NCBI GenBank assembly: GCA_964529405.1
Contig: CAZGWE010000003.1
Location: 17,192-81,191, forward strand
Reading direction: 5' to 3'
Source: an uncultured Candidatus Saccharibacteria bacterium
GTDB taxonomy: Bacteria > Patescibacteriota > UBA1384 > XYA2-FULL-43-10 > 1-14-0-10-43-13
Length of the DNA: 64,000 nt
Under the pieces are notes generated by a model. It searched no databases and was not told the DNA's origin. It saw nothing but the letters and a program-made list of their open reading frames with translations. Positions 36,177 to 58,343 of this stretch are shown piece after piece (position 1 is the stretch's first letter; the number at the start of each line of letters is the position of its first letter). Both the position numbers and the translations under genes were made by a program.

Positions 36177-36198
36177 AACTCCCCTGACGAAATTATCA

Positions 36199-36282
36199 CC
36201 CCCTCACTAAATTACGAATTAGCAGTCCGAGTTTGATTCGTACTTTCGCGTTTTCGTGCAAATTCGCAATTTAGTGAGGGGG
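36199..36282. repeat. long imperfect palindrome (stem-loop) in rmlA-rmlC spacer
   Basis: CCCCCTCACTAAATT (36199-36213) is the reverse complement of AATTTAGTGAGGGGG (36268-36282); inner TACGAATT / AATTCGCA arms. Confidence 0.8.
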
Positions 36283-36291
36283 GCGAAGTTA

Positions 36292-37017
36292 TTATACTTG
36301 CGCCCTGGCTTTCTCTGCCATAATCTGGTTGGCCCGCAGCAGACTATCGAACGTGCCGGCATCTTCCCAAACACCCTCGATAATATTAACCTTCAGCTCT
36401 CGTTTTTTGAGATAAACATTATTTAGGTCGGTAATCTCGATCTCGCCCCTGGCAGAGGGCTTCAAATTTTTAGCGTATTCAATAACCCGATTGTCATAAG
36501 TATAAATGCCGACTACGGCATAATCGCTTTTTGGTGTGGACGGTTTCTCCTCGATTGATAAAACTTTCATGTTTTTGTCGAATTCGGCCACACCAAACCG
36601 TTCCGGATCATGGACTTTTTTAGCAAAAACCATGGCGCCTTTTTCGAAAGATTTGACATCGCGCGAAAAATCATGGTCAAAGATATTGTCGCCGAGAATC
36701 ATAGTAACACTATCTTTGCCGATAAAATCCTCCCCGACGATAAAAGCGTCAGCTAAACCGCGCGGCTCTTCCTGGATGACATAGCTGAATCTAGCCCCAA
36801 ACTCCTTGCCGGTTCCCAGCAAATTCAAGAAGTGGCCGGAGTAATCGGGGGCAATGATGATCAAAATATCTTTGATGCCGGCGTTAATCAATGTCTCGAT
36901 CGGATAATAGATCATCGGTTTATTGTAAACCGGCAACAACTGTTTAGAAGTGATCTTAGTCAAAGGCCTAAGCCTTGTCGCACGCCCCCCCGCCAGAACG
37001 ATACCTTTCATCTTCAT
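36292..37017 (-). CDS. rmlA: glucose-1-phosphate thymidylyltransferase (short form)
   Basis: GIVLAGGRATRLRPLT, EEPRGLADA motifs; 241 aa short-type RmlA. Confidence 0.85.
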   Translation of the reverse strand: MKMKGIVLAGGRATRLRPLTKITSKQLLPVYNKPMIYYPIETLINAGIKDILIIIAPDYSGHFLNLLGTGKEFGARFSYVIQEEPRGLADAFIVGEDFIGKDSVTMILGDNIFDHDFSRDVKSFEKGAMVFAKKVHDPERFGVAEFDKNMKVLSIEEKPSTPKSDYAVVGIYTYDNRVIEYAKNLKPSARGEIEITDLNNVYLKKRELKVNIIEGVWEDAGTFDSLLRANQIMAEKARAQV

Positions 37018-37080
37018 AACAACTCCTGTTATTACGATGCTAATCTACGAACAACATCCGAATGCCGCAAATGGGATCGA

Positions 37081-37122
37081 GCAATCAATATTCGCAGCAT
37101 TCGCATGTTAATTCGCAGCATT
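37081..37122. repeat. 21-bp direct tandem repeat x2 (ATTCGCAGCATTCGCATGTTA / ATTCGCAGCATTCGCATCGCT) between gtrA-like and rmlA
   Basis: Read directly; 19/21 identical; each unit contains ATTCGCA twice; same heptamer also in the 36199-36282 hairpin. Confidence 0.8.
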
Positions 37123-37566
37123 CGCATCGCTTGCGTTCGTTTTAAATGTCCACAATTTATTGGCGCCAAAATTCCAAAAGAAAACCAAAAACACGGCAAT
37201 CAGTTTGCCCACATTATAAGCAGATATCTCCCTTCCGGCAAGAGCCAGGCTCCGGTCTATCGCAGCAACATAAAAGTTAACGATTAACTCCGTTAACAAT
37301 AAACCGATGACGGAGACTATCGCGAATTGGCTGAATTTCTTGGCCTCCTGGCCCTCCGTATCATAACTGAAAGTCCAGCGCGAGTTCATATAGTAGCCGT
37401 TAACAGTCCCACCGATAAAACCGACCGCCACGGCTATCCACAATAGCCAACCCAACCACGTTTTAAGGATGTTTAGTAAGACCATATCAATCGCCGTACT
37501 GACGGCACCGACAACCCCGTATTTAACAATTTGGTTAATGATTGGCTGCTCTTGCTTCTTTACCAT
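37108..37566 (-). CDS. GtrA-family membrane protein
   Basis: VKYGVVGAVSTAIDM ... NSRWTF ... NKLWTFK GtrA pattern; 4 helices. Confidence 0.6.
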   Translation of the reverse strand: MVKKQEQPIINQIVKYGVVGAVSTAIDMVLLNILKTWLGWLLWIAVAVGFIGGTVNGYYMNSRWTFSYDTEGQEAKKFSQFAIVSVIGLLLTELIVNFYVAAIDRSLALAGREISAYNVGKLIAVFLVFFWNFGANKLWTFKTNASDANAAN

Positions 37567-37716
37567 AGAACCTCGCTCGGTTAAAAATATATTGTCTTGA
37601 TTATACAATAAAAATCACTTTTTTTATATCCGTGTTGACGATGTGCCAAGTCATCTTGTAGAATGAGTGGGAAATTAGGATTTAGACATTCCCCGTCTTA
37701 CGGGGCAGGAGGCATC

Positions 37717-38364
37717 ATGCTGAACGTAGATATCGAAAAGATTTTACCCGTGACGGAGGCAAGAGATTCGCTCAACAAGATTGTTGAAGAGGTCAGCAGT
37801 AGCGACGAAATGTATGTTCTAACCGTCAACGGCAAACCGAATGCCGTTGTGGTAGGCGTACAACACTTGGAAAAGCTGACTGGCAACTCCCGTGATGATC
37901 TTATGGCTAAAGCCGGCATCGCCGCCGCAACCGGTAGCCAGACCGATGATGCAACTAACGCCAAAATAGGAAACACATCCGCAGATGATACCGCTAACAA
38001 TCTCAACACTAAGCCGGTTGAATCCTTGCCGACCGATTCAACGCCAAGCCAACCTCTGGTTGGCCAAGACGCAAGCGGCACCGAATCCCCTCTGCCGACT
38101 ATGCCGGCGGGCGAAAATGCCGCTCCGACCGATACGGCCCAAACAACCCAACCGGGACAGCAGCAAGACCCCGAGGCGGCAGTGCCTCTGAACGGTGAAC
38201 CGGCGGACGCCTCTCCGATGACAACCGGCCAAAGCATTACTCCGGAGACAGATCCGTTTGCCACTCCCGGCCCCAACGATATTTTTGAACAAACCAATTC
38301 CCAAAGTCAAAATCCGCCTCAAAGTAACGGAAACCAGCCAACCAGCAATCCCCCGGCTGTCTAA
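37717..38364 (+). CDS. Phd/YefM-type antitoxin-like domain fused to a long low-complexity P/T/Q/S-rich tail
   Basis: The N-terminus ILPVTEARDSLNKIVEEVSSSDEMYVLTVNGKPNAVVVGVQHLEKL fits the Phd/YefM fold signature. About 150 further residues are compositionally biased (55% GC DNA). Confidence 0.45.
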   Translation: MLNVDIEKILPVTEARDSLNKIVEEVSSSDEMYVLTVNGKPNAVVVGVQHLEKLTGNSRDDLMAKAGIAAATGSQTDDATNAKIGNTSADDTANNLNTKPVESLPTDSTPSQPLVGQDASGTESPLPTMPAGENAAPTDTAQTTQPGQQQDPEAAVPLNGEPADASPMTTGQSITPETDPFATPGPNDIFEQTNSQSQNPPQSNGNQPTSNPPAV

Positions 38365-38382
38365 TTATGGAGTAAGTGGAAC

Positions 38383-38652
38383 ATGCTAAATATGACCAGC
38401 AGAGAAAGCGAAGAGACAACCAAAAAAGATAACGCCCGATGGCTGGTCAAGGTTGACCAGGAGTTGTGCGCCGGATGCGGAACTTGCACTTATTATGCCA
38501 AAAAAATCTTCGGCCTCAGCGACGACGGAGTAGCGACAGTTAAAAAAAACACCCAGGCAAACGACTTGCAAGCAGTCATTAAAGCAGCCGAGAACTGTCC
38601 CAACGGCGCTATCATCATCGAGGATACCCAAACCGGTAAGAGCTATTCATAA
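38383..38652 (+). CDS. small single-cluster [Fe-S] ferredoxin
   Basis: CAGCGTC ... CP motif; 89 aa. Confidence 0.6.
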   Translation: MLNMTSRESEETTKKDNARWLVKVDQELCAGCGTCTYYAKKIFGLSDDGVATVKKNTQANDLQAVIKAAENCPNGAIIIEDTQTGKSYS

Positions 38653-38680
38653 AGCATAAAGCAAAAGATAGCTACCAAAC

Positions 38681-38722
38681 AAAAGAATAGCCCTGCCAAA
38701 CGGCGGGCTATTCTTTTTTAAT
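38681..38722. terminator. bidirectional rho-independent terminator between convergent ferredoxin and sod genes
   Basis: GAATAGCCCTGCC-AAAC-GGCGGGCTATTC stem-loop followed by TTTTTT on + strand and A-run on the other side. Confidence 0.6.
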
Positions 38723-38740
38723 TTTTGTTTTGTTGAAGAG

Positions 38741-39388
38741 TTACTCCTCGTACAGTTTTTCAACCTGTGGCCAGTTGACCACATTCCAGAAATTCTTGAT
38801 ATATTCGGCTCTGCGGTTTTGATATTTTAGGTAGTAGGCGTGCTCCCAAACGTCAATCAATAGTAACGGCGTGTCTCCTTGCGAAAGCGGACTATCCTGG
38901 TTGGGCAGAGAGTAAACTTTGAGTTTTCCATTTCTATCCTTAACAAACCAGGCCCAACCGCTACCAAAGTGATCGACGGCTTTTTGGCTCATCTCTTCCT
39001 TAAACTGGTCAAACCCGCCAAATGTTTCGCGGATCGCTTCTAAAAGTTTTCCGCCCGGTTCTCCCCCGCCGGTGCTTCCTTTTACTGTTGTCATGATCGG
39101 CCAAAACACGGAGTGGTTTAGATGTCCTCCGCCCTGGTTCTTTACAGAATCACGGATATCTTCCGGAACCTGCCGAAGGTCCTTCAACAGTTCCTCGACC
39201 GGTTTTTTATAAAGCTCAGGATATTTTTCCAAGGCGGCATTCAGTTTATCAACGTAAGCCTTGTGATGCTTATCATGGTGAACCCTCATCGTTTCTTCGT
39301 CGATATAGGGTAATAGTGCATCATAAGGATAGGGCAAATCTGGTAGCTTGTGTTCGTTCCGCTTTGCAGCGGAGTCGATTTGATTCAT
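38741..39388 (-). CDS. sod: Fe/Mn superoxide dismutase
   Basis: LPYPYDAL, HHDKHH, DVWEHAYYL motifs. Confidence 0.9.
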   Translation of the reverse strand: MNQIDSAAKRNEHKLPDLPYPYDALLPYIDEETMRVHHDKHHKAYVDKLNAALEKYPELYKKPVEELLKDLRQVPEDIRDSVKNQGGGHLNHSVFWPIMTTVKGSTGGGEPGGKLLEAIRETFGGFDQFKEEMSQKAVDHFGSGWAWFVKDRNGKLKVYSLPNQDSPLSQGDTPLLLIDVWEHAYYLKYQNRRAEYIKNFWNVVNWPQVEKLYEE

Positions 39389-39524
39389 ACATCCTCCTCT
39401 CCTCCTTGGTTAATTTAAGGTTTGCGCCTTAGATATCCTGCAGCTTAACAAAGGCAATCGGTTGCCAATCATGCAGTTTTCGACTTAGCATTTATCAGTG
39501 ATCGAGATTCAATCACTGATAGAG

Positions 39525-40136
39525 CTAGATTTTCCCGACCAAATCCATTCCCGTCTTCAAAGCGTCCTCTCCCGGATGCCAGTTGGCCGGACAGGCTTCC
39601 GCGCCGCCGTGCTCCCGCACAAATTTGGCCGCTTGGAGCTTGCGCAATAATTCTGAGGTATTCCGGCCAATGTTGTTGTCATTGACTTCATAAGACCGGA
39701 TAATGCCCTCCGGGTCAACAATAAAGCTACCACGCAAATCAATGCCCTCACCATCAAGATAAACGCCCAATTTTCTGGATAACGCGGCAGCAGGATCGGC
39801 AACCATGGGAAATTCAATTTTTTTAATTGCCGGAGAAGCGTCATGCCAGGCTTTATGAACATAAACCGTATCGGTACTGATGCTCAAAATCTCTGCTCCC
39901 TCTTTTTTAAATTTGTCGTAGTGCGCGGCTGCGTCTGTAAGTTCCGTTGGGCAAACAAAAGTGAAATCGGCGGGATAAAAAACTAAAACCAGCCATTTGC
40001 CCTTATAACTGGAAAGTTTGATCCTTCGTTGCTTCCCGGCCTGATAGGCCTCCAATTCGATGTCGGGAATTTTTTTACCGACCAGCGGAACCGGCTGTTC
40101 GTTAAATTCCTCAAAGCCGTAATCCTCTTCTGCCAT
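39525..40136 (-). CDS. peroxiredoxin (AhpC/TSA family)
   Basis: FYPADFTFVCPTE peroxidatic Cys motif; start taken at MAEEDY. Confidence 0.85.
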   Translation of the reverse strand: MAEEDYGFEEFNEQPVPLVGKKIPDIELEAYQAGKQRRIKLSSYKGKWLVLVFYPADFTFVCPTELTDAAAHYDKFKKEGAEILSISTDTVYVHKAWHDASPAIKKIEFPMVADPAAALSRKLGVYLDGEGIDLRGSFIVDPEGIIRSYEVNDNNIGRNTSELLRKLQAAKFVREHGGAEACPANWHPGEDALKTGMDLVGKI

Positions 40137-40236
40137 CGTGACCTCCCGTTTCATTTTAGAAAGAAATGTTTCAAGCGTACTTATTTATTTCACCTACAAA
40201 TTAACACTTTTAATATTAATAAACATTGTGATTTTT

Positions 40237-40455
40237 TTAATGGGCAAAAACCATCTCTGCGTCTGCAAAGCCGCTTAAAAGTTCAAACTCGGCCCGATCG
40301 GTGCCGCACACGGGACACGACCAGCCTTTATGAATTCCGTCAAAGGGAGTACCGGGAAAAACAAAGTTTTTAGGGTCCCCGTCCCTTGGATCATAAATAT
40401 AACCGCAAGGCCCGCAAATATACTCGGGAAAACCCGCTCGCTTTAAAACTTCCAT
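40237..40455 (-). CDS. rubredoxin
   Basis: CGPCGYIYDP ... WSCPVCG two CxxCG knuckles. Confidence 0.8.
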   Translation of the reverse strand: MEVLKRAGFPEYICGPCGYIYDPRDGDPKNFVFPGTPFDGIHKGWSCPVCGTDRAEFELLSGFADAEMVFAH

Positions 40456-40582
40456 AATCTCCTTTCTTGGGACCTGCACCCCCCGCACACATAAATTCCC
40501 GAATTTGGGCTGTGCTCCAGAAAGGCATCCAGCACCACGATTCCCCGCCCGGGGAATTTACGGCGCTTTTTCCGCAATCCTG

Positions 40583-41041
40583 TCATTGGGATTTAACGGT
40601 ACTGCCAGCTTGGGTCTTTTTGCTAATCTTTTTTTTCTTATTCTCTACGCACTTCTGGCACAAACCATAAACATTGCATTCGATCTGGTCAATCTGTCCC
40701 AGATAACCAAGCTGTTCGGCAATCGCTCCGCCAACTTGCCAGATGTCATGGACAAAAGAACAATGACGGCAAATAAAGTGGTAGTGGCATTTATTATTTC
40801 CATCAAAACGACACTTGCCTTCACCCATATTCAATTGGATAATAAAACCGTTGGCAACCAAATACTTAAGATTGCGATAGACCGTGCCCAAACTGATAGT
40901 CGGCAGGCTTTTTTTGATTTTGTCGTAAACCTCTTCTGCCGTAGGGTGGTGGTCCGCGCCGCGCAAATGTTCAAGTATTAACAAGCGCTGGCTGGTCAAA
41001 CGGTCACCTTGTGCTTTGATCTTTGCTTTTATTTTGTCCAT
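40583..41041 (-). CDS. Fur-family metalloregulator (PerR-like by context)
   Basis: LTSQRLLILEHL, HPTAEEVY, HYHFICRHC ... CQKC motifs. Confidence 0.75.
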   Translation of the reverse strand: MDKIKAKIKAQGDRLTSQRLLILEHLRGADHHPTAEEVYDKIKKSLPTISLGTVYRNLKYLVANGFIIQLNMGEGKCRFDGNNKCHYHFICRHCSFVHDIWQVGGAIAEQLGYLGQIDQIECNVYGLCQKCVENKKKKISKKTQAGSTVKSQ

Positions 41042-41158
41042 CTCGATTAACCAAATTAATGTTACCTCTCCGAACTATTAACTCCCGTCCTAATATTTAG
41101 CGCCTAACAATAACCGATGCGTAATAATAATGAATGGGTATTGATAGTCAGAAACTAA

Positions 41159-41181
41159 TGATAAGATAGCGCTATCAATAA
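41159..41181. promoter_or_regulatory. candidate Fur/PerR-type operator upstream of the first fur-family gene
   Basis: TGATAAGATAGCGCTATCAATAA has a perfect 12-nt palindromic core GATAGCGCTATC (41165-41176) with flanking TGATA/AATAA arms. It lies ~120 nt upstream of the minus-strand start at 41041. Confidence 0.3.
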
Positions 41182-41263
41182 CAACTGTCAATAACCCGCT
41201 GTGGATAAGTCATTTTTTTGGAAGAAATGGCAATATCGGGACATTCCTCGCAATCTGTCAGGC

Positions 41264-41303
41264 AACAAAAAAACGGGGAAACCGGTATATGCCGTGCCCG
41301 TTT
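41264..41303 (-). terminator. rho-independent terminator downstream of second rubredoxin
   Basis: Minus-strand AAACGGG-loop-CCCGTTT stem followed by TTTTTGTT. Confidence 0.5.
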
Positions 41304-41345
41304 ATGGCTATCGAATGTAGTTATTAGACAGGCTCTAAGAGAATG

Positions 41346-41579
41346 CTATCCTTCCACTTTTGATCCCTCTAAACCGGTAGTGTTTTGATAGTACTCGTTT
41401 TCAGGCTCAAATTCTGCTTTTGTCACGCCGCACAACGGACACAACCAGTCGTCTGGAATATCCTCGAATGCTGTGCCAGCTGGAATGCCGCCCTCCGGGT
41501 CCCCCTCGGCCGGATCATAAACATAACCGCAGGGCGGACATAAATAACGCTTTGAAGTTTTGTCCTTAGATATAATCAT
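41346..41579 (-). CDS. rubredoxin (with C-terminal extension)
   Basis: [10 protein letters not shown] ... WLCPLCG motifs. Confidence 0.8.
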
Positions 41580-41773
41580 TCTCTCTAAAAAGTTAAGCTG
41601 ATTAATTACAGTTTAAAATCCTAATTGCTAATTTCTAAATCTCTTCGAGAGCCTGAGGACTCCTCAGAGCCTCGAACGGCCTAAACAGATTCTAATGTTC
41701 AAATGTCAAAACGTTTTGAGATTATTTTTTGCATTTTGATATTCTTTAGGATTTAGGATTTCGTGCTTAGGAT

Positions 41774-41813
41774 TTATTGGTATTTGCAACACATGTGTTG
41801 CAAATACCAATAA
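41774..41813. repeat. perfect 40-bp palindrome TTATTGGTATTTGCAACACATGTGTTGCAAATACCAATAA
   Basis: Read directly; centre between 41793/41794. It extends to 42 bp with one flanking pair and overlaps the stop codon and last 13 codons of the Fur paralogue. Confidence 0.9.
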
Positions 41814-42223
41814 ACATAGTACTCAACCTGCTTGATTTTGCCCATACTTTTCAGATCTTTGGCAATGCGGCGGCTGGCCTGCCAGATGTCGTAAATCTTA
41901 ACGCACTCAGTGCAGATGAAGTGCCCGTGATACTGAGTGTTGGCATCATATCGGCTCTTGCCGTCATTTGCCACCACTTGGATAATAAAGCCATTATCAA
42001 CCGAATATTTTAAATTGCGATAGACGGTTGAAATATTGATTTTAGGTAAATCCTTTTTAACTGCCTCGAATATGTCCTCTGCCGTCGGATGGTTGCTAAC
42101 ACTCCGCAGATATTGAAGTATCAAGGTACGCTGTTTGGTCAAACGATTTCCGGTATTGTTGACGATCTCTTTGATATCCAAGACATCGTCTGCACACATT
42201 TCTTCCACCATATTTACCCTCAC
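41774..42223 (-). CDS. Fur-family metalloregulator paralogue (PerR/Fur-like), atypical C-terminus
   Basis: LTKQRTLILQYL, HPTAEDIF, HGHFICTEC motifs. The last 13 codons are encoded by a perfect palindrome, and the second CxxC pair is replaced by MCC. Confidence 0.7.
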   Translation of the reverse strand: MRVNMVEEMCADDVLDIKEIVNNTGNRLTKQRTLILQYLRSVSNHPTAEDIFEAVKKDLPKINISTVYRNLKYSVDNGFIIQVVANDGKSRYDANTQYHGHFICTECVKIYDIWQASRRIAKDLKSMGKIKQVEYYVYWYLQHMCCKYQ

Positions 42224-42615
42224 TATTGCTATTAAGTTGCATTAACAATGCACCGCTTATTGCAAATTAGTGTCAATAATTAATCAGTGGATAACTTACT
42301 TACCAGACAGAACGTAAACCTGGACAGTATTTTTTTCAAAATAATGGTTAGTATGGAAAAGTTGTCTCTTGGCTGGAGCTTGCGCTGTCCTCGCCCCCGT
42401 TCTGATTAGCTATGGCAAAGTAGTAAATTAAAGCATAAATCAACCCGCCGATGATTACATAAAGCAGAATCCACTGCCAAAGCGGACGCTTCCCATAGCC
42501 TCGATTTTTATTGTCTTCTTCTTGATAATTTTCAGATATTTGTACTCCTTTTGCCTTTTATAGCTCAAATGCAAATACAATCAAATGCCGCTAATCAATG
42601 ATTAACAGCAATTCT

Positions 42616-42705
42616 TGGCGGAGAGGGTGGGATTTGAACCCACGAGGAGCTTGCACCCCTGGCTGTTTTCAAGACAGCTGCACTAGACCGCTATGCGACC
42701 TCTCC
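42616..42705 (-). tRNA. tRNA-Ser (anticodon UGA)
   Basis: On the minus strand this folds as a cloverleaf. The acceptor stem is GGAGAGG/CCUCUCC, the D-stem has 3 bp, and the anticodon stem GCUGU/ACAGC carries the loop CUUGAAA. There is a long variable arm, a T-arm GUGGG-UUCAAAU-CCCAC, and the 3' CCA is encoded. Confidence 0.85.
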
Positions 42706-49100: not shown

Positions 49101-52100
49101 ATGTTCCACCTAAAGAACCTTCGGAAATTTACCCGCCTCTCCGTCTTTGCCGGAGCATCTTTGCTGCTGTTTTTTATTGTTGCCTTCAGTTATAATAATT
49201 TTTTTGCCGGCGCCGATACGGAAATTTCAGTCTATTGCCGCAACAACACCGTCATTAACCCCAATTGCGACGAAGACCACTTCGTTGTTTTTAATATTCA
49301 AAAATATTTGACCGACCCCGAGGCAATCAAAAAAGTCGCGGCCTTGGACGGATACCTTTTAGACAACGGCAGAGACGCCAAAATGCCGGTCGGGCTAGAA
49401 CCCGATGAAATTGACGACATTTACGATCAGAACGGCAAACAGGTCGGCGACGGCTACAAGGCCTGGTCGGCTGTCAAAAGGCTCTACCAGACAGTTGCTT
49501 CAGCCGCTGCCCGGGACAAAAACTCGGTCAACCAGGGTTTGGCCAACCGTTCCATCCAGGAGATAGACCGCCGGATAAGCACGAGCTTGGCCAGCTACCA
49601 GCAAAGCGGTGACAAATTTGTCGTTTACAATGTCTCTAAACACATTAGAAAAAAGGCTGACCGGGAAGCTTTGGCCGCTTTTCTGAAGGCAAACGACATT
49701 GGTTTTATCAGCTATGACACAAACGCCGATATTGCCAATCTCTATCCGACTATCAGCGATTCCATTATTGGTGATATTAAGCTCGACAGCCTCAATCTGG
49801 CTGTTTGGAAAAATATTGCCACCCTTTACAAAGCGGTTAACGCCAGCGCCAAAACGCGGCCCGCTGAAGCCGAAAACGATATCGGCCAATCCCGCATGTC
49901 TTACGACGCAATCAACGCCAAAACCGCCGGGTACAAGCCTTCGACCAGCGGCTACGAACGCGTCACCGAAAACGGCCAAGAATATTTCCTCATCGGCAAC
50001 TATTCAAAGTGGCTCTCAAAAGATGATTTGAAACAAATCCAGGAAAATGATGCTCTCTTTGCCGGCAAAACGATCCGCAACGCCTTTACCGGCCAATTTA
50101 TCAAGCTGCCCGTTAGTATCAACCCCGAAAGCGACATTTCATCCGGGCATACGCCACTGACAAATTCTATCGCCGGAAAGGTCGTTTCAATTTACCAGGT
50201 CGTCTTCAATGCCGGCGAAGCCACCGATAAGGATGTTGACGACTCGAAGGCCTCTATCGAGAGTTTGGGCCGGTTTATCAGCGATTACTATGCGCAGAGG
50301 GGATGCGATAACGCCAACTACTCTTTCGGCCTTAGCGGCAGCAATGTTATGATTTGCGACTTTTCCAAGAAACTTAGCAAGAGCTCTTACATGGCAATCA
50401 ACCAGCTGGTTGTCCATATCAAACAGGTTGCAGGCAAAGAACTGCCGATTGTCGCCGTCAACGATAATTCAATCAAATCCGATTCTGTCACCATCCCCAG
50501 GGTCTATGGCGCCGGCAACGTCGTCATTTACGACAACAACGACAAGAAGGGTTGGCAAGCGGTCGTTGAACTTTACCGCTATATTTTCAACAATGCCCGC
50601 GACGATCAGGCAGAATTGAAAAGCGATGTCGCTGCCTCCATTAACACTATTGAAGATAGTGCAAAAAACCCGCCGGTTTATGTTCTTCTCGGCACCGGCA
50701 AAGGCAATAAATGCGAACAGGGAGACAGCCACTGCCAGCTCCAGGTTTTTAAGAGTTTCGCTTCATGCAAAAATTTAAAACAGGGCGATGACCAAAATAT
50801 AACGGTTGATGATATGTCATGTATCATTAGTAATCCTGGCGACAACAATGGCGAGTATTTTGAACCGAAAGAAAATTCCAAAGCCCGCAACCTACTCAAA
50901 GCCGTTCTGGCAGCAACCACAAATGCCGATGATAAAGTAATAATCCAAGCGTTTCTTGACGATTATGAGTCGCAGTTTCTTGGCGAGAGTAGCGACGGCA
51001 ATGTTAGACTCGCTGCACCGAAGCTATTGAAACAAACTAGCCCTGACGGGCTGAGCGGATTCCAGAATTACGGCGCTAATGTACCGCTCAAATATAATAT
51101 CGATATAAATGAATCTCTCACTAGAAAATTGGCTGCGTCTGGGAATGATTATAAACTCGGAATATCTGCCTATGTCAGCAATGGCTCAAATGCTGACGGC
51201 AGGCTCATTGGAGTATCAGAAGCAAAAAACAGTGGAGAAATTATTTGGAATGCAAACGCCTCGAGTGACCCTGATCTTAAATCTTACGTTGAAATTGGCA
51301 AGCATAAATTTACAACAGTACTTTTTGCTTATGATCAGACGGTAGGACTACCGTCTTCCGGCGATCAAGCCGTAGAACCCGACAATGTATATAGTAAGCT
51401 CGGGTATGACTTCGAAATTGTCGGTCCCAATGGTGAACGCGACCCCTCGCAGGTACTCAGCGACAATCCAGATTCATGTACCGGCGGGAAGATTTCTATC
51501 GTTGCTCCCAGTATTGTCAAGCCGGCAAACACCGCCAACATTACCGCAAATGTAACGCCGCCAAAAGTCAGCCGATCAGACGGAGCTACAGACATCTTTG
51601 AAATCTCTATCTCTATTAACAAGTCTCCTCTCGGCACAAAACCGGAAGATTTGCCAAAACCGGAGACAGTTACTAACTGGTCTCTAAAAACCAGGGGCGA
51701 TTTCAGCAATAGTACACAAACTCCTCAAAAAGTCTCAATAGACGACGCTCACGCCTGGCCCAATCCAACGTCTGATGAGGGTATCCATTACATTAAAGTT
51801 CAAACATTTACGGTTATAGACGGAGCAAAATATTGTACTGGCGTCGCCTACAAAGCAATCACCTTAGACAAAGCAGCTCCAGAAGATAAGTGTAGATTAG
51901 TTGGCGGCAAAAAGGTCTGCGATGGCGATGAAGAAGCCGGGGCGCCCTCCCGACCGGCTTTGCCGGCTGGCGAGGGTTCATCCATTGGAACGCTCCCTGA
52001 TTTAGTTAACCGGATTATCGATATTTTCTTCTCTGTCATCGGAGCCCTGGCCGTGCTTGGTAATGTCATTGGTGGTATTATGTACCTGACAGCCGGAGGA

Positions 52101-52235
52101 GATAGCGGCAAGGCCGAGAAGGCCAAAAAAGCGGTTCTTTACTCCTCCATCGCAGTCATTATCGCCGTTACGGCCTACGTCATCTTGCATGCGTCCGTCG
52201 GAACCATTAATCAGATTATTACCGGGAGAAAATGA
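49101..52235 (+). CDS. large secreted/surface protein (1044 aa) with N-terminal signal-anchor and C-terminal VirB2/TrbC-like pilin-like two-helix module
   Basis: The N-terminus LSVFAGASLLLFFIVAF is hydrophobic. About 930 aa are hydrophilic with several Cys pairs. The C-terminus IIDIFFSVIGALAVLGNVIGGIMYLTAGGDSGKAEKAKKAVLYSSIAVIIAVTAYVIL aligns by eye with the flanking small proteins (shared YLTAAG / G-D/N-x-x-K-A-E/A-K-K core). Confidence 0.55.
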   Translation: MFHLKNLRKFTRLSVFAGASLLLFFIVAFSYNNFFAGADTEISVYCRNNTVINPNCDEDHFVVFNIQKYLTDPEAIKKVAALDGYLLDNGRDAKMPVGLEPDEIDDIYDQNGKQVGDGYKAWSAVKRLYQTVASAAARDKNSVNQGLANRSIQEIDRRISTSLASYQQSGDKFVVYNVSKHIRKKADREALAAFLKANDIGFISYDTNADIANLYPTISDSIIGDIKLDSLNLAVWKNIATLYKAVNASAKTRPAEAENDIGQSRMSYDAINAKTAGYKPSTSGYERVTENGQEYFLIGNYSKWLSKDDLKQIQENDALFAGKTIRNAFTGQFIKLPVSINPESDISSGHTPLTNSIAGKVVSIYQVVFNAGEATDKDVDDSKASIESLGRFISDYYAQRGCDNANYSFGLSGSNVMICDFSKKLSKSSYMAINQLVVHIKQVAGKELPIVAVNDNSIKSDSVTIPRVYGAGNVVIYDNNDKKGWQAVVELYRYIFNNARDDQAELKSDVAASINTIEDSAKNPPVYVLLGTGKGNKCEQGDSHCQLQVFKSFASCKNLKQGDDQNITVDDMSCIISNPGDNNGEYFEPKENSKARNLLKAVLAATTNADDKVIIQAFLDDYESQFLGESSDGNVRLAAPKLLKQTSPDGLSGFQNYGANVPLKYNIDINESLTRKLAASGNDYKLGISAYVSNGSNADGRLIGVSEAKNSGEIIWNANASSDPDLKSYVEIGKHKFTTVLFAYDQTVGLPSSGDQAVEPDNVYSKLGYDFEIVGPNGERDPSQVLSDNPDSCTGGKISIVAPSIVKPANTANITANVTPPKVSRSDGATDIFEISISINKSPLGTKPEDLPKPETVTNWSLKTRGDFSNSTQTPQKVSIDDAHAWPNPTSDEGIHYIKVQTFTVIDGAKYCTGVAYKAITLDKAAPEDKCRLVGGKKVCDGDEEAGAPSRPALPAGEGSSIGTLPDLVNRIIDIFFSVIGALAVLGNVIGGIMYLTAGGDSGKAEKAKKAVLYSSIAVIIAVTAYVILHASVGTINQIITGRK

Positions 52236-53035: not shown

Positions 53036-54700
53036 TTAGCTCTTCGTTACTCGCCAGACCTCTTCAACCGTCGTTTCGCCCTTGAGGGCCTTAATCAGGC
53101 CGTCCTGCTCCATCGTCACTATACCCTGGGCTACGGCCGCTCTTTCAAATTCCGTAATAGAGGCTGTTTTGGCCAGCAAACCCTCGATCGAGCTGTCGGG
53201 CACCAAAACTTCGATCACCACCTCGCGGCCGGAGTAGCCGGACTTGGTGCACTTGTCGCAACCCTTGCCGCGGTGCAAAAGAGGAGCGGCGCTATCAAGC
53301 AATTTAATAACATCCGGGCTAAGCCTCTTCTTGATCGGTTCCATTAACCGCTTTACCTCCTGCCAGATCTCCGGCCTCGGCGCGTATTGCTCTCTGCAGT
53401 TGGCGCAAACTTTTCTAACCAGGCGCTGGGCCATAACCAGATTAATCGAACCGGAAAGAAGATAAGGTTTGACGCCCATCTCCAGCAAACGGGCAAAGAC
53501 AGCCGGGGCCGAGTTGGCGTGGATGGTCGAAACAAGCAGGTGGCCCGTCAGAGCCGCCTGTACCGCTATTTCGGCCGTCTCGACATCGCGTATCTCGCCA
53601 ACCATTAAAACATCGGGGTCTTGGCGCAGGGAGGCTCTAAGGCCATCGGCAAACTTGTACCCGGCGGCGTTATCCACTTGGCTCTGTTCAATACCCTCAA
53701 TCCGGTATTCAACCGGGTCTTCTAAAGTGATGATTTTAATGCCCGGCTTATTTAGCGCCATTAAAATAGCATAAAGAGTCGATGATTTGCCGCTGCCGGT
53801 CGGACCGGAAGTCAAAATCATACCGTGGGGCTTGGAGATTGCTTCTCTGATCGCTGCCAAGGCTTCGTCCCGGAAGCCCAATTTATCGAGGGCCAAAATT
53901 GATTTAGCCTGGCCCAAAATCCGAATGACGATTGACTCGCCGAAAGAAGACGGCATAATCGATATGCGCAAATCAATCGTTTCATTATCAAGCTCTTTAA
54001 CTGAAAAGCGGCCGTCCTGGGGCTGGCTGGCGATATCCATACGCAGCTTTGCCAAGTATTTAATTCTGGAAATCAGCTGCTTATATCGGGGTAGAGGCAG
54101 CTTGACCACATCCTGTAAAACGCCGTCAACCCGGTATCGAACCAAAAACTCCTTCTCCTCCGGTTCCAGGTGGATATCGGAGGCTTTTGTCTTAAGAGCG
54201 CCGATAATTATGACGTCCAAAAGCTGGGTGACGCTCACTTTTTTGGCCGCGATACCGACCGAACCCAAATCGCTGATATTAATATCAAAATCTTCCTCTT
54301 TCGGCGCCACATCGCTGTTATCCTGCATTTTGGCCGCTTCCCTTTTTAACGTCTCGTAAAAAGTGATGCCGTAGAGAAAACTTGTCTGGGAAATAACGGA
54401 GATAACAAACTCCACACCCACGGTCTGGCTGTGGCGCTTCAAAAAGTCCATCGTGGCCGGGTCGGCGGGATGGACCACTCCCACCCGGACCGAGCGGCCA
54501 AGTTTGAGGTAAGGAATAACCCGGAATTGGATCGCCAAATTTTCCGGAATAGCGTCAATCACTTCTTTGGTTATGGGATAAGAGGTCAGATTGATATAGG
54601 GTAGGTTGAGCTTGTTTGCCAGCTCCCGGGTGTGATGCTCCTCCTGCTCCCGATTCAAGTGGTAAATTGTTTTTGTGATATCGGTCATAATAATTAGCAC
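53036..54700 (-). CDS. pilB: type II secretion/type IV pilus assembly ATPase (GspE/PilB family)
   Basis: Walker A LTSGPTGSGKSSTLYA, Asp box, Walker B LMVGEIRD, His box, tetracysteine CANC ... CDKC; two N-terminal T2SSE_N-like domains; 554 aa. Confidence 0.85.
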   Translation of the reverse strand: MLIIMTDITKTIYHLNREQEEHHTRELANKLNLPYINLTSYPITKEVIDAIPENLAIQFRVIPYLKLGRSVRVGVVHPADPATMDFLKRHSQTVGVEFVISVISQTSFLYGITFYETLKREAAKMQDNSDVAPKEEDFDINISDLGSVGIAAKKVSVTQLLDVIIIGALKTKASDIHLEPEEKEFLVRYRVDGVLQDVVKLPLPRYKQLISRIKYLAKLRMDIASQPQDGRFSVKELDNETIDLRISIMPSSFGESIVIRILGQAKSILALDKLGFRDEALAAIREAISKPHGMILTSGPTGSGKSSTLYAILMALNKPGIKIITLEDPVEYRIEGIEQSQVDNAAGYKFADGLRASLRQDPDVLMVGEIRDVETAEIAVQAALTGHLLVSTIHANSAPAVFARLLEMGVKPYLLSGSINLVMAQRLVRKVCANCREQYAPRPEIWQEVKRLMEPIKKRLSPDVIKLLDSAAPLLHRGKGCDKCTKSGYSGREVVIEVLVPDSSIEGLLAKTASITEFERAAVAQGIVTMEQDGLIKALKGETTVEEVWRVTKS

Positions 54701-54828: not shown

Positions 54829-55704
54829 TTAACCACCTTTTTTTCTGATGGTAATGTTTACCCCGCTTTTCTTCTCCTGTTTTTTTAGGCGCCTGTCCAT
54901 AATACGGGAGACAAAATCTTTCTTTCCAGGTTTTTCCGCCTCAACTTCATGGACAATTTCTTCGACATCAACTTTGGCCACTTCTTTTGATTCCTCTTTG
55001 CGAATTTTAATATTTTTATTGACATACCATTGCTGGGAGATAATAAACAAATTGGTCACAATCCAGTAGAGAGCAAGCGCCGCCGGCACGGTCCGGCCGA
55101 TAAAAAGCGTCATAACCGGAAAGATATAAGTCATCTGTTTCATCATCATAGCAGTCATGTCCTGCTCGCCTGCTTTGCCAGTGTTAATCTGGGGCGGCAT
55201 CATCAATAGGGAAAGAACCAGCTGGGTCAGACCGGCGATAATCGGCAAAACCCACAAATCCGGCTTGGAGAGGTCGATACCCCATAAAAAGGTATTAACG
55301 CTCTCCGGATGGGGCACGAAAGAGTAAAGCAAAGAAAAACGCGAAGTATCCAGGCCGTTACGAAAGACCTGGTATAAAACAAGAATGATCGGCAGCTGGA
55401 TCAATTGGGGCAGGCAGGAACCGAAGGGCGAGACGCCTTCCTCTTTGTACAGGTTCATTAGAGCTTTGGCCTGCTCCTGCTGGTCTTTGATTTCGGCCCG
55501 GAGTTTATTGATTTTCGGCTGCAATAATTGAAGACGCATTTGAGCCCTGGCCGCTTTGAGCGAGCTGGGCAAAAGAATAATTCTGATTAAGACGGTTAGA
55601 AGAATTATCGCCCAGCCAATCGAGTGGCCCGGCACCAGCCAAGCCAAAAAAATCAATAGGTTATAGAGAGGCTGATATAAAAGCACTTTTAAAAGGTTCT
55701 TCAT
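54829..55704 (-). CDS. yidC: membrane protein insertase YidC (short form)
   Basis: 291 aa; VLIRIILLPSSLK, PFGSCLPQLIQLPI YidC/Oxa1 motifs. Confidence 0.85.
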   Translation of the reverse strand: MKNLLKVLLYQPLYNLLIFLAWLVPGHSIGWAIILLTVLIRIILLPSSLKAARAQMRLQLLQPKINKLRAEIKDQQEQAKALMNLYKEEGVSPFGSCLPQLIQLPIILVLYQVFRNGLDTSRFSLLYSFVPHPESVNTFLWGIDLSKPDLWVLPIIAGLTQLVLSLLMMPPQINTGKAGEQDMTAMMMKQMTYIFPVMTLFIGRTVPAALALYWIVTNLFIISQQWYVNKNIKIRKEESKEVAKVDVEEIVHEVEAEKPGKKDFVSRIMDRRLKKQEKKSGVNITIRKKGG

Positions 55705-56074: not shown

Positions 56075-56185
56075 TTGATGATAGACAGTAGAAGATGGAA
56101 GATAGAATTTGAGGTTGGATGATGGAAATTGGAGTCTAGCTTCTAATCTCCAGTTTCTATTGTCTATCATCAATTATCTGAAGGC
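56075..56185. repeat. origin-proximal repeat family, rearranged hairpin-forming copy 3 (yidD-rnpA spacer)
   Basis: TGATGATAGACAGTAGAAGATGGAAGATAGAA ... GGAAATTGGAG resembles the core. The right end CTATTGTCTATCATCAATTATCTGAA is the inverted start of the element, so the two ends form a 16-bp stem. Confidence 0.6.
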
Positions 56186-56524
56186 CTTGGCTCTTGTAAG
56201 TGCTTCTCGAAGCTGTTCTTTGATCTCATCAAGTTGATATGGATATTTGAAATTACTCTTTACAATAACAACAATATCCAAGCCCGGTTTGACTAATGGC
56301 AGTATTTCCCGCGTTACCACTCTCAATCTCCTCTTAAGCGCATTTCTGCGGGTTGAGCGTTTATCAACCTTGTTGCTGATGACAAAACCAAACCGGGCCG
56401 GTGAAAGTGCCCCGGGTTTTTGGCTTACCCGCACGGACAAATTATTAACAAAAACGGGACGGGAGTTCTTGAAGACTTTCTGAAAATCCCGGCCTTTCTG
56501 CAATCTGTTTTCTCTCCTAAGCAT
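56174..56524 (-). CDS. rnpA: ribonuclease P protein component
   Basis: RLQKGRDFQKVF ... FGFVISNKVDKRSTRRNALKRRLR motifs; start taken at ATG 56522-56524 (track ORF extends to 56605). Confidence 0.8.
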   Translation of the reverse strand: MLRRENRLQKGRDFQKVFKNSRPVFVNNLSVRVSQKPGALSPARFGFVISNKVDKRSTRRNALKRRLRVVTREILPLVKPGLDIVVIVKSNFKYPYQLDEIKEQLREALTRAKAFR

Positions 56525-56647
56525 ATCGTCTCTCCCTACGTTCAATAGTAACACATGGTCTCTTCGATTACTATCCAACTTAAGCTGCTTAAGCCATAAT
56601 AACAAAAAAGAGCCGGGTAGCTCAGATTTTATTTAAACCAAGCAAAA

Positions 56648-56888: not shown

Positions 56889-56897
56889 TGTGGATAA
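56889..56897. promoter_or_regulatory. consensus DnaA box TGTGGATAA in dnaA promoter region
   Basis: Exact 9-mer match ~45 nt upstream of dnaA start. Confidence 0.5.
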
Positions 56898-56942
56898 CTT
56901 GGTATATTTTTGGTACAACTATTGCAGGGAGAACAAACGCCA

Positions 56943-58343
56943 ATGGATAAAAACGAAATATGGAAAAACGTCTTAGGCGAGCTGGAGGTCAGCATCTCTA
57001 AGCCGAACTTCGAAACCTGGTTTAGAAACACATTTCTGATTGATTACAAGAAAGGCTATTTTACAATCGGAGTGCCAACAATATTTATAGAAGACTGGCT
57101 TAGAAAGAAGCATTTGCGCGAGATACTACAAGCCTTACAGAAACAGGTTGACGACCAGGTACTGGGCATTAAATTCAAAATAGCTTCGCCTTCTCCCGAA
57201 CAAAGAATCTCTCTTGATAAAACTAAAGTTATCCACAAGCCTGTGGATAAACCCGCCGGACAAACAGCCTCAACCGGTGTCCAATTATTGCCTAAAAACA
57301 TCACCTTGAATGACGATTATAAATTTACCAATTTTATCGTCGGCCAATCAAACCAACTGGCCCATGCGGCTTCCCTGGCTGTTGCCAGCAAACCCGGCAC
57401 TATGTATAATCCGCTTTATATCTACGGCAACTCCGGATTGGGTAAAACCCATCTGATGCAAGCCATCGGCCACTCATACCTCGAAAATTATCCGGGCAAA
57501 AATGTTCTTTACGTGACGTCTGAAACATTCATTAACGAATTTATCAACGCTGTCGAAGCTGGACACGGCAAGGCCAAGAATTTCAAAGACCATTACCGCA
57601 ATGTTGATATCCTATTAATAGACGACATCCAGTTTCTCTCCAATAAAGAATCAACGCAGGAAGAATTCTTCCACACTTTTAACCATCTTCATCAAAATAA
57701 GAAGCAAGTAGTGCTTACCTCCGACCGGCCGCCCAAAGACATTAAGGGCTTGGAAGTCAGGCTAAAAACCCGTTTTGAAGGCGGCATGGTAGCCGATGTT
57801 ACCACACCGGATTTTGAAACAAGGGTGGCTATACTCAAACAAAAAGCCAAAAAGCTGAATATTGTTTTTAAAGAAGAAAAAATTGACGAAGTCCTGCATT
57901 TGATCGCCGAAAATATCCAATCTTCAATCAGGGAACTTGAGGGAACATTTACCAAAATTATTGCCACTTGCAACCTTGAGGGGAGTACGATCAACAAAGA
58001 CCGGGTTGCCTCCATTCTAAGCGGTATAATCCAAAAGAAAAAACAGGTTGTCACTCCGGAGTTAATTCTGCGGGAAGTCCATAAATTTTATCAGATTCCG
58101 CTCGAAGACATCCTGGGCAAAAAACGTACCAAGGAGATAGTTCTGCCGAGACAAATCACGATGTACCTGCTGCGCCATGAAGCTAATATGTCCTATCCGG
58201 AGATCGGCAAAAAAATCGGCGGCAAGGACCATTCAACCATTATCCACGGCTGCGAAAAGATTGAAGCCGATATTTCGGACAACCAGAGGATAAAAGAAGA
58301 CCTGGCTGTTTTGAAAGAAAAGATATACGCCATGGTACGATAA
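56943..58343 (+). CDS. dnaA: chromosomal replication initiator protein DnaA
   Basis: EIWKNVLGELEVSISKPNFETWF N-domain, GNSGLGKTHL Walker A, LLIDDIQF Walker B, C-terminal DNA-binding helix-turn-helix; start at ATG 56943. Confidence 0.95.
   Translation: MDKNEIWKNVLGELEVSISKPNFETWFRNTFLIDYKKGYFTIGVPTIFIEDWLRKKHLREILQALQKQVDDQVLGIKFKIASPSPEQRISLDKTKVIHKPVDKPAGQTASTGVQLLPKNITLNDDYKFTNFIVGQSNQLAHAASLAVASKPGTMYNPLYIYGNSGLGKTHLMQAIGHSYLENYPGKNVLYVTSETFINEFINAVEAGHGKAKNFKDHYRNVDILLIDDIQFLSNKESTQEEFFHTFNHLHQNKKQVVLTSDRPPKDIKGLEVRLKTRFEGGMVADVTTPDFETRVAILKQKAKKLNIVFKEEKIDEVLHLIAENIQSSIRELEGTFTKIIATCNLEGSTINKDRVASILSGIIQKKKQVVTPELILREVHKFYQIPLEDILGKKRTKEIVLPRQITMYLLRHEANMSYPEIGKKIGGKDHSTIIHGCEKIEADISDNQRIKEDLAVLKEKIYAMVR

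Follow-up and report, generated by a model that had tools for sequence, protein, structure and literature searches.

The metal-catalysed peroxide sensor PerR of Bacillus subtilis (a Fur-family protein; structures 2FE3, 2RGV and 3F8N) is linked to genes for peroxide detoxification, regulates its own gene and binds the PerR box TTATAAT-N-ATTATAA. The perR operons of strict anaerobes (e.g., rbr1-perR-rbo of Clostridioides difficile with a rubredoxin-domain gene downstream, or the PerR regulon of Clostridium acetobutylicum) are small and autoregulated, and place PerR beside rubredoxin-type carriers and enzymes acting on reactive oxygen species. The perR-rbr-rdl operon of Desulfovibrio vulgaris is of a similar kind. 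Leptospira interrogans possesses two PerR-type paralogues, PerRA and PerRB, which function without the C-terminal CxxC motif (PMC8638967). Here we describe a locus (positions 38383-42223) in a 64-kb stretch of contig CAZGWE010000003.1 of an uncultured Candidatus Saccharibacteria bacterium (the whole analysed stretch is referred to as the window), in which two genes for Fur-family regulators (Reg1 and Reg2), each paired with a rubredoxin gene (Rd1 and Rd2), are clustered with peroxiredoxin and superoxide dismutase genes. This locus is probably a PerR-type peroxide and superoxide defence locus with an extra regulator-rubredoxin module, in which Reg2 is frameshifted by an additional T that makes a palindrome perfect.

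The genes and signals of the locus, identified from the listing of open reading frames (ORFs) and from profile scans with Pfam and NCBIfam, are as follows:

38383-38652, plus strand: single-cluster 4Fe-4S ferredoxin, 89 aa (Pfam Fer4_15, E = 5e-13; also Fer4_13)
~38681-38717, between the ferredoxin and sod genes: bidirectional intrinsic terminator (A-run, GC stem, U-run)
38741-39388, minus strand: Fe/Mn-family superoxide dismutase (SOD), 215 aa (Sod_Fe_N, 3.9e-29; Sod_Fe_C, 1.2e-42)
39525-40154, minus strand: typical 2-Cys peroxiredoxin (Prx) of the AhpC/Prx1 type (AhpC-TSA, PF00578, 5.9e-38; 1-cysPrx_C, PF10417)
40237-40488, likely 40237-40455, minus strand: rubredoxin 1 (Rd1; PF00301, 1.1e-15)
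40583-41041, minus strand: Fur-family regulator 1 (Reg1), 152 aa (PF01475, 3.3e-25, above the gathering score)
41160-41210, minus strand: Reg1 promoter (-35 TTGACA at 41191-41186, -10 TATCTT at 41168-41163, spacing 17 nt)
~41267-41303, minus strand: probable intrinsic terminator after Rd2 (AAACGGG...CCCCGUUU, then U7)
41346-41579, minus strand: rubredoxin 2 (Rd2), 77 aa (PF00301, 3.3e-23)
41773-41814: perfect 42-bp palindrome without spacer, TTTATTGGTATTTGCAACACA directly followed by TGTGTTGCAAATACCAATAAA (21-nt arms, 100% complementary; repeat search)
41774-42223, minus strand: Fur-family regulator 2 (Reg2), as read (PF01475, 2.4e-24, above the gathering score)
42260-42276, minus strand: degenerate Fur-box-like operator TTGACACTAATTTGCAA over the -35 region of Reg2
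42616-42705, minus strand: tRNA-Ser(UGA), just upstream of Reg2 (ARAGORN and Rfam)

The initial annotation had read the same order (ferredoxin on the plus strand, a terminator, then SOD, Prx, Rd1, Reg1, Rd2 and Reg2 on the minus strand), and all seven genes lie where it had placed them. Both regulators share the five regulatory ligands of B. subtilis PerR, and the Zn(Cys)4 motifs match too, the second pair of Reg2 only after repair of the frame. The linkage to peroxide-detoxifying genes is common to both systems, as would be the autoregulation. However, the identity to B. subtilis PerR is only ~35-40%, Arg replaces Asn61, and the operator of the relatives of this locus is Fur-box-like (TGATAAT-N-ATTATCA) rather than a PerR box. 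The perR operons of anaerobes employ rubrerythrin, superoxide reductase or flavodiiron proteins, whereas 2-Cys peroxiredoxin and SOD are encoded here; furthermore, the regulator-rubredoxin module occurs twice. As in L. interrogans, there are two PerR-type paralogues in one genome, and the structure of leptospiral PerRA (5NL9) is among the PDB matches of the regulators. The leptospiral PerRs, however, are devoid of CxxC motifs by evolution and keep the helix-4 Asn, whereas Reg2 keeps its first CxxC and has the second one frameshifted yet readable. Unlike the modules in the window, the leptospiral perR genes are neither in tandem nor paired with rubredoxin genes.

According to the initial annotation, the second regulator has lost its second CxxC pair and has MCC in its place. 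This is correct for the ORF as read (41774-42223), which ends with ...VYWYLQHMCCKYQ and a stop codon, but not as a description of an evolved variant: the cause is a one-nucleotide frameshift inside the palindrome. The coding strand ends with GTT TAT TGG TAT TTG CAA CAC ATG TGT TGC AAA TAC CAA TAA. If one T of the TT at 41810/41809 is skipped, it reads GTT TAT GGT ATT TGC AAC ACA TGT GTT GCA AAT ACC AAT AAA TCC TAA and is translated to ...VYGICNTCVANTNKS, with the stop codon at 41769-41767 and the gene then spanning 41767-42223 (sequence at this site with the extra T, GTTTATTGGT; without it, GTTTATGGT). The +1 frame of Reg2 thus reads GICNTCVANTNKS up to its stop, and the second CxxC (CNTC, in VYGICNTC) is intact there. 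The repaired VYGICNTC matches VYGLCQKC of Reg1 and VYGVCQSC or VYGVCREC of orthologues, and the motif is kept in all 34 other aligned family members (Reg1, B. subtilis PerR and 32 homologues from databases and related loci). In fact, repaired Reg2 can be aligned with B. subtilis PerR through the C-terminal CxxC (C136, C139) with an E value of 6e-22. Since the motif is intact in the +1 frame and kept by the other family members, the second CxxC of Reg2 is, as far as can be judged from sequence, displaced by a +1 frameshift rather than lost by protein evolution. The frameshifted product is the one annotated at NCBI (protein P0001). Programmed +1 frameshifting was also rejected, as none of the homologues depends on it and the site, a plain TAT-TGG, is not in a known shifty context.

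The palindrome extends over the final 13 codons and the stop codon of Reg2, and the frameshifting T (41809/41810) is exactly the base that makes it perfect. Without this T, a perfect core of 30-32 bp would be followed by a 1-nt bulge; its presence adds six paired positions to each side. This palindrome is unique and is the longest in the window (the next longest has 13-nt arms, and the maximum in shuffled sequence is 7-11), and it folds as an RNA hairpin of 20 bp (z = -4.45). At the equivalent sites of Reg1 and of the related loci L003 and L004, no palindrome is present. The defining footprint of template-switch mutagenesis at quasi-palindromes is a base change after which the arms of an imperfect inverted repeat match perfectly (PMC7202029, PMC3820800). 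Here, arm complementarity is raised in an apparently pre-existing imperfect repeat, if the homologues represent the ancestral state. The change is of the same kind as at the E. coli and yeast hotspots described in these studies (an arm-perfecting single-base change accompanied by a frameshift), but it is deduced from one assembled sequence and not seen as a mutational event. Note also that a perfect core of 30 bp inside a coding region is already improbable in itself.

Whether cells produce Reg2 with an intact second CxxC hinges on the additional T being real or not. Logan contigs from SRR4343428 and SRR4343430 are 100% identical to window positions 36181-41808, and both begin at GGTATTTGC (41808), one base past the extra T; a third Logan contig begins at the tRNA edge (42616). 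Reg1, Rd2 and SOD are recorded on an NCBI contig of 86,797 bp, and an exact-protein look-up of Reg2 for an independent copy gave no match. The Logan contigs thus stop just short of the T, which is seen in one assembly only and may be a consensus error. The break at 41808 suggests that a self-complementary 30-mer met the assembly k-mer length of 31, and it is not evidence of polymorphism.

The strongest alternative is that the T arose by error (in sequencing, in the consensus or from a minor variant), and that Reg2 is an intact protein of 147 aa with both CxxC pairs, i.e., one of two functional PerR paralogues, each with its rubredoxin. This would be the picture of the initial annotation, a duplicated sensor-effector pair with diverged roles. 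We regard it as possible but rather unlikely. Apart from one base, Reg2 is well conserved with every ligand kept, and its branch is short; a single assembly covers the site, assemblers have difficulty with palindromes, and it is at this very point that both Logan assemblies break. Two PerRs per genome have a precedent in Leptospira PerRA/PerRB (PMC8638967), and Rd1 and Rd2 differ in a surface patch and in charge. On the other hand, the junction ...CTATGTTTATTGGTATTTGC... cannot come out of a de Bruijn assembler unless reads contain it, so that k-mers with the T should be present in the data, and the inserted base is precisely the one that perfects the palindrome, as is predicted for template switching and unlike a random error. 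Furthermore, the Reg2 promoter has a poor -10 hexamer and a weaker operator, and the identity of sensor residues and recognition helix in both regulators gives no indication of diverged specificity. Because the T perfects the palindrome and the assembler cannot build junction k-mers from reads lacking them, it is more likely real than an error. A genuine quasi-palindrome template-switch mutation that disabled or weakened Reg2 and left Reg1 as the working regulator is thus the most likely explanation. If the T is real, Reg2 is without two of the four structural-Zn ligands and is therefore probably impaired. A spontaneous perR-inactivating mutation is known from C. difficile 630-delta-erm, where it leads to constitutive derepression of the operon and to air tolerance (PMC11841134).

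Comparison with related loci shows what is ancestral in this arrangement. Two relatives (L003/L016 and L004) possess a single perR-rd-prx-sod operon each. L004, from a metagenome-assembled genome (MAG) of a Patescibacteria group bacterium, is the closest genome locus, followed by L005 from a Parcubacteria MAG. In L004, tRNA-Ser(tga) is located at 2415-2504 upstream of perR (at 3622), the same tRNA anchor as in the window. More distant Patescibacteria-type loci (L005, L017, L018, L020 and L022) have perR-prx(-sod) without rd, and perR is upstream of prx in all of these loci as well as in L003 and L004. The perR-rd-prx-sod order in two independent relatives implies that the clustering is not due to chance. 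As the operon is conserved in relatives and both its GC content and its GC content at third codon positions (GC3) are normal for the window, it appears to be a conserved, vertically inherited operon rather than a recently acquired island. What seems to set the window apart is the extra promoter-perR-rd module.

The initial annotation had pointed to two paralogous regulators, each paired with a rubredoxin, and such pairs are indeed present: Reg1 and Reg2 are 50% identical, Rd1 and Rd2 47%, and the promoters of the two promoter-regulator-rubredoxin modules can be aligned. Its further suggestion of a duplicated unit with diverged specificity holds for the paralogy of the modules but not for the regulators, where divergence in specificity is unsupported; only Rd1 is clearly diverged. 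Reg1 and Reg2 have the same sensor ligands and the same recognition helix (TVYRNLKY), and there is therefore no sign of diverged specificity in the regulators.

A neighbour-joining tree was built from 35 family members (127 alignment columns), with 200 bootstraps on a subset of 13 sequences. Five close sequences, including Reg1 and Reg2, form a clade in 99.5% of bootstraps. Within it, Reg2 groups with the single-copy orthologues, with Reg1 outside, in 81% of bootstraps, and in none of the 200 replicates are Reg1 and Reg2 sisters. A recent tandem duplication within the lineage was therefore rejected, as the copies are not each other's closest relatives. Likewise, the rubredoxins of L004 and L003 share 60-67% identity with Rd2 and 48-49% with Rd1. 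Reg2-Rd2 thus appears to be orthologue-like and, judged by the tRNA, in the ancestral position, and Reg1-Rd1 is the divergent module. The homology of the two promoters favours duplication of the module as a whole, after which one copy changed faster than the other; alternatively, the duplication may be old, or the module may stem from a close lineage by transfer.

Reg1-Rd1 could also have reached its place between rd and prx by horizontal transfer, with an unsampled lineage as donor and no tandem duplication involved. The position of Reg1 outside Reg2 and the orthologues in 81% of bootstraps, the fact that Reg1 and Reg2 are never sisters and the lack of a close relative of Rd1 anywhere searched are in line with this scenario. 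Nevertheless, it is unlikely: Reg1 is within the same tight five-member clade (99.5%), its promoter is homologous to that of Reg2 (TTATCCAC...TTATTGACA), neither module stands out from the window in GC or GC3, there are no flanking mobile-element genes or repeats, and the tree is accounted for equally well by a duplication after which one copy evolved faster. A compositional signal of transfer was looked for in either module and not found. A MITE-like (miniature inverted-repeat transposable element) insertion in the long spacer between Reg2 and Rd2 (inverted repeats I2 and I6) was also discarded, as the window and the related loci contain no other copies and the fold is not significant (z = -1.76).

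The top PDB match of both regulators is B. subtilis PerR 2FE3 (E = 1e-21 for Reg1 and 6e-22 for repaired Reg2). The alignments of the sensor sites to 2FE3 are free of gaps, and the equivalents of H37, D85, H91, H93 and D104 are all kept:

Reg1 regulatory ligands: H32, D80, H86, H88, D99 (alignment to 2FE3)
Reg2 regulatory ligands, numbered from the ATG at 42211: H41, D89, H95, H97, D108 (alignment to 2FE3)

The initial annotation had reckoned with the possibility that both proteins are of the Zur/Fur type, but alignment of the metal sites revealed a full PerR-type site in each, including Asp104. Reg1 carries both CxxC pairs (C91/C94 and C128/C131); in Reg2, the first pair (C100/C103) is present, and C137/C140 exist solely in the repaired frame. 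In the account of PMC8638967 (citing Parent et al. 2013), Asp at position 104 is found in PerR and Irr, and Glu in Fur, Zur, Mur and Nur; Asp104 confers H2O2 sensitivity on PerR (PMC8638967). The same source, citing Caux-Thang et al. 2015, describes an Asn/Arg residue in helix 4 whose exchange makes PerR recognise the Fur box instead of the PerR box. At the position of B. subtilis Asn61, Arg is present (TVYRNL) in Reg1 (R56), Reg2 (R65) and their closest orthologues, in agreement with the Fur-box-type operator of the relatives. We therefore use the term "PerR-like" for Reg1 and Reg2: they appear to be PerR-type sensors reading a Fur-type box, with incomplete membership of canonical PerR and a presumably PerR-like mode of action. 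Note that Reg1, and only Reg1, has extra cysteines, C77 and C85 (window ~40787-40813), that flank sensor ligands (GKCRFD, NKCHYH), one of them immediately preceding the His equivalent to H91; orthologues have Ser, Ala or Tyr at both positions.

The regulators could also be metal-uptake regulators (Fur/Zur-like) that merely adjoin antioxidant genes and, e.g., couple the expression of SOD and rubredoxin to iron supply. For that, one could refer to the operator of the relatives, TGATAAT-N-ATTATCA, which is the classical Fur-box consensus, and to the helix-4 Arg of both proteins (Arg in Fur, Asn in PerR). Both miss the NCBIfam cut-offs for PerR, Fur models match too (more weakly), and rubredoxin, SOD and ferredoxin are all iron proteins. 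However, the top NCBIfam and PDB matches of both are PerR and not Fur or Zur, position 104 is Asp as opposed to the Glu of Fur, Zur, Mur and Nur (PMC8638967), the conserved partner is peroxiredoxin (perR-prx in L005, L017, L018, L020 and L022) and not a metal transporter, and no metal-uptake genes were found among the 50 window ORFs scanned. A metal-uptake function is thus improbable, and the PerR-like assignment is preferred.

The operator of the relatives is an inverted repeat, TTGAYAAT-N-ATTATCAA, upstream of perR in L003, L004, L005 and L017 (Fur-box consensus), and it overlaps the -35 region in L003 and L004. The promoters of Reg1, Reg2, L003 and L004 align around TTATTGACA, and those of Reg1 and Reg2 are homologous to each other (shared stretch TTATCCAC...TTATTGACA). 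The Reg1 promoter is of the sigma-70 type (10/12 in the promoter scan), with degenerate Fur-box-like operator remnants over its -35 hexamer. The Reg2 promoter has a poor -10 hexamer (GTGCAT, at 17-nt spacing), and its operator has 4 mismatches to TTGATAATNATTATCAA and was hence missed by a search allowing up to 3. Indeed, when the whole window was searched with the relatives' consensus at ≤3 mismatches, neither promoter was matched, and a single chance match was found at 29151. In a position weight matrix (PWM) built from five sites of relatives, these sites score 18-25 bits and the window promoter sites 9-10 bits (9.2 for Reg1; 9.7-10.0 for Reg2), with shuffle maxima of 12.9 on average; within the window, the Reg2 site ranks 7th and the Reg1 site 12th, both below the shuffle maxima. 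The window operators are therefore positional homologues of the relatives' sites, albeit degenerate. As they score low, repression at the window promoters is inferred from position only.

The motif ATTTGCAA, tried as a new operator half-site common to the palindrome and the Reg2 promoter, was dropped: its 5 copies in the window compare with 6.3 expected, which is not significant. A perfect DnaA-box 9-mer, TTATCCACA, is located at 41200-41208, just upstream of the Reg1 -35 hexamer, an 8/9 copy at 42286-42294 in the homologous place of the Reg2 promoter, and another perfect copy precedes perR in the Parcubacteria locus L005/L019. These 9-mers near perR promoters may be due to chance or represent a conserved upstream promoter element.

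Both rubredoxins possess the rubredoxin domain (PF00301) with all four Cys ligands (CxxCG...CPxCG). Rd2 passes the NCBIfam RubredRD cut-off of 90 (95.9 bits), and Rd1 (66 bits) fails it. On the surface of Rd1, the acidic DIPDDW patch is changed to GIHKGW, and the net charge is -5 versus -9 in Rd2. In an exhaustive search of 1.84e9 representatives, the best non-self relatives of Rd1 were ordinary rubredoxins with up to 58% identity; a word-index search with Rd1 returned nothing besides Rd1 itself. Rubrerythrin (Rbr), superoxide reductase (SOR), flavodiiron protein (FDP), NAD(P)H:rubredoxin oxidoreductase (NROR) and thioredoxin reductase were sought with Pfam in 50 of the 66 window ORFs, the other 16 being read by eye, and none was detected. 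The rubrerythrin or rubredoxin-oxidoreductase partners that the initial annotation had thought worth seeking elsewhere are thus absent from the 50 ORFs scanned. Since three lineages have kept rd between perR and prx and the scanned ORFs contain no classical client, there is room for a link of rubredoxin to Prx, unlikely as it is. A reading in which rubredoxin is the dedicated electron donor of the 2-Cys Prx and the second module, with the charge-altered Rd1, serves a different partner is very doubtful, although, if true, it would mean a PerR-controlled peroxidase pathway replacing the thioredoxin/AhpF route in reduced genomes of the Patescibacteria type. Equally doubtful, and separate from it, is the idea that the palindrome is a recurrent template-switch site turning Reg2 on and off.

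Several findings weigh against a PerR-type locus with a frameshifted Reg2. Both regulators fail the PerR markers (helix-4 Asn together with a PerR-box operator, TTATAAT-N-ATTATAA), and both remain below the NCBIfam equivalog cut-offs for PerR: their top model is clostridial PerR NF052545, with 110.1 bits for Reg1 and 88.9 bits for Reg2 against a cut-off of 180. The window promoters are without a significant match to the operator of the relatives, the extra T is covered by one assembly only (the NCBI contig behind P0001), and the scanned ORFs of the window yielded neither a reductase for rubredoxin nor one of its classical clients (Rbr, SOR, FDP). Finally, apart from the frameshift Reg2 shows no decay, has all key residues and lies on a branch shorter than that of Reg1; the frameshift must therefore be very recent, or an error.

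Taking these points into account, we propose the following scheme. The ancestral layout, represented by the relatives, would be tRNA-Ser(UGA) followed by a putatively autoregulated perR-rubredoxin-peroxiredoxin-SOD operon with a Fur-box-type operator over the -35 region. In the genome of the window, a second promoter-perR-rd module would give [Reg2-Rd2], ending at its terminator, and [Reg1-Rd1-prx-sod], ending at the bidirectional terminator shared with the convergent ferredoxin gene. As is known for the family, a metal-loaded PerR-type dimer would repress both promoters; H2O2 would oxidise His ligands of the Fe site (equivalents of H37 and H91) and thereby take the repressor off the DNA, and rubredoxin, peroxiredoxin and SOD would then be made. 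The extra T would disable or weaken Reg2 and leave Reg1 as the working regulator.

The two-unit layout, [Reg2-Rd2] and [Reg1-Rd1-prx-sod], is predicted from the terminator after Rd2 and the sigma-70-type promoter before Reg1. The stem of this terminator is present in both the minimum-free-energy and the centroid folds; a simple terminator scan did not flag it because its loop is long. The terminator between the ferredoxin and sod genes was matched by the scan at 38692-38707 and has a fold of -30.8 kcal/mol (z = -5.35; equalled by 0 of 200 shuffles). The ferredoxin gene is convergent with the operon. In L004, sod is followed by a large ORF of 938 aa (ribonucleotide reductase, by reading), and the adjacency of ferredoxin and sod is thus not conserved there.

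The start of Reg2 is probably the ATG at 42211, which is preceded by a Shine-Dalgarno sequence, GAGGG, and the true start of Rd1 is likely the ATG at 40455 (72 aa), as in the gene call on the Logan contig. For Prx, the alternative start ATG 40136 results in the 203-aa product called on the Logan contigs. Its translation has the peroxidatic Cys within FTFVCPTEL and the resolving Cys within ACPANW; it scores 245.7 bits with the AhpC model TIGR03137, narrowly below the cut-off of 272, and 218.8 bits with PrxU. SOD has both the Sod_Fe_N and the Sod_Fe_C domain but is below the NCBIfam equivalog cut-offs for SodA and SodB. The prx-sod spacer (39389-39524) is unusually long, 136 bp versus 19 bp in L004. 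Within it lie a weak terminator-like hairpin and a perfect inverted repeat of 9 bp, ATCAGTGAT-N9-ATCACTGAT, so that sod may be under a control element of its own here.

On both sides of the locus there are further unusual frames. Between tRNA-Ser and Reg2 (42350-42560, minus strand), an open frame of ~70 codons for a small membrane-anchored peptide (...GKRPLWQWILLYVIIGGLIYALIYYFAIANQNGG...) has a good ribosome-binding site, AAAGGAG, without an ATG, GTG or TTG start; ATA is in the expected place. This may be an unusual start codon or a start-codon mutant. The gene at 37663-38364 (plus strand) encodes a Phd/YefM antitoxin domain (residues 25-80) joined to a low-complexity tail of 150 residues in which Pro, Thr, Gln and Asn abound. 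It is followed by the ferredoxin gene and not by one for a toxin, and it also occurs on Logan contig L001.

The remaining window contains genes for cell-envelope sugar metabolism, genes related to pilins of type IV secretion systems (T4SS) and a replication-origin region; the 16 ORFs read by eye include membrane proteins, DnaA, DnaN, RecF and a PilB-like ATPase. The genes of the origin region are:

54829-55704: yidC
56174-56605: rnpA
56910-58343: dnaA
58953-60080: dnaN
60109-61143: recF

DnaA boxes are clustered at dnaA and in the dnaA-dnaN spacer (56889-58866), with 5 perfect copies of TTATCCACA and several 8/9 copies. Because of this cluster and the classic rnpA-yidC and dnaA-dnaN-recF order, the window probably holds the chromosomal replication origin. 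Three small proteins of the T4SS-pilin family (PF18895; 48743-49096, 52232-52558 and 52642-52968, plus strand) are encoded around the ORF of a 1044-aa secreted or anchored protein (49101-52235), and the gene for a PilB/GspE-like ATPase (53036-54700, by reading only) adjoins the pilin genes; this region looks like a surface-appendage locus. The sole GC-rich stretch of the window (GC 0.55 versus ~0.44) contains a 339-aa ORF without a Pfam match at 22244-23263 (minus strand), which may be foreign DNA. An IS200-like Y1 transposase gene (PF01797, E = 5e-42) is located at 5608-6051 (minus strand) amid polysaccharide-biosynthesis genes.

Taken together, the locus appears to be a known kind of system, an autoregulated perR antioxidant operon, in an under-studied lineage, with two curiosities: the mixture of a PerR sensor with Fur-box reading and the palindrome-perfecting frameshift. 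For annotation, this means that Reg2 should be marked as frameshifted or checked against the reads, as a "regulator without second CxxC" would be a misreading and not a new variant. Provided that the T is real, the palindrome illustrates cleanly and in nature how quasi-palindrome "correction" can inactivate a gene, and the loss of one perR copy would be in line with the advantage that perR mutations are known to bring upon exposure to oxygen. A sensor site of the PerR type is combined here with an operator and a DNA-reading residue of the Fur type, a reminder that the Asn/Arg and Asp/Glu markers can be mixed. For the organisms, the locus suggests that some members of this uncultured lineage with reduced genomes possess a compact defence, regulated along familiar PerR lines, against both peroxide and superoxide.

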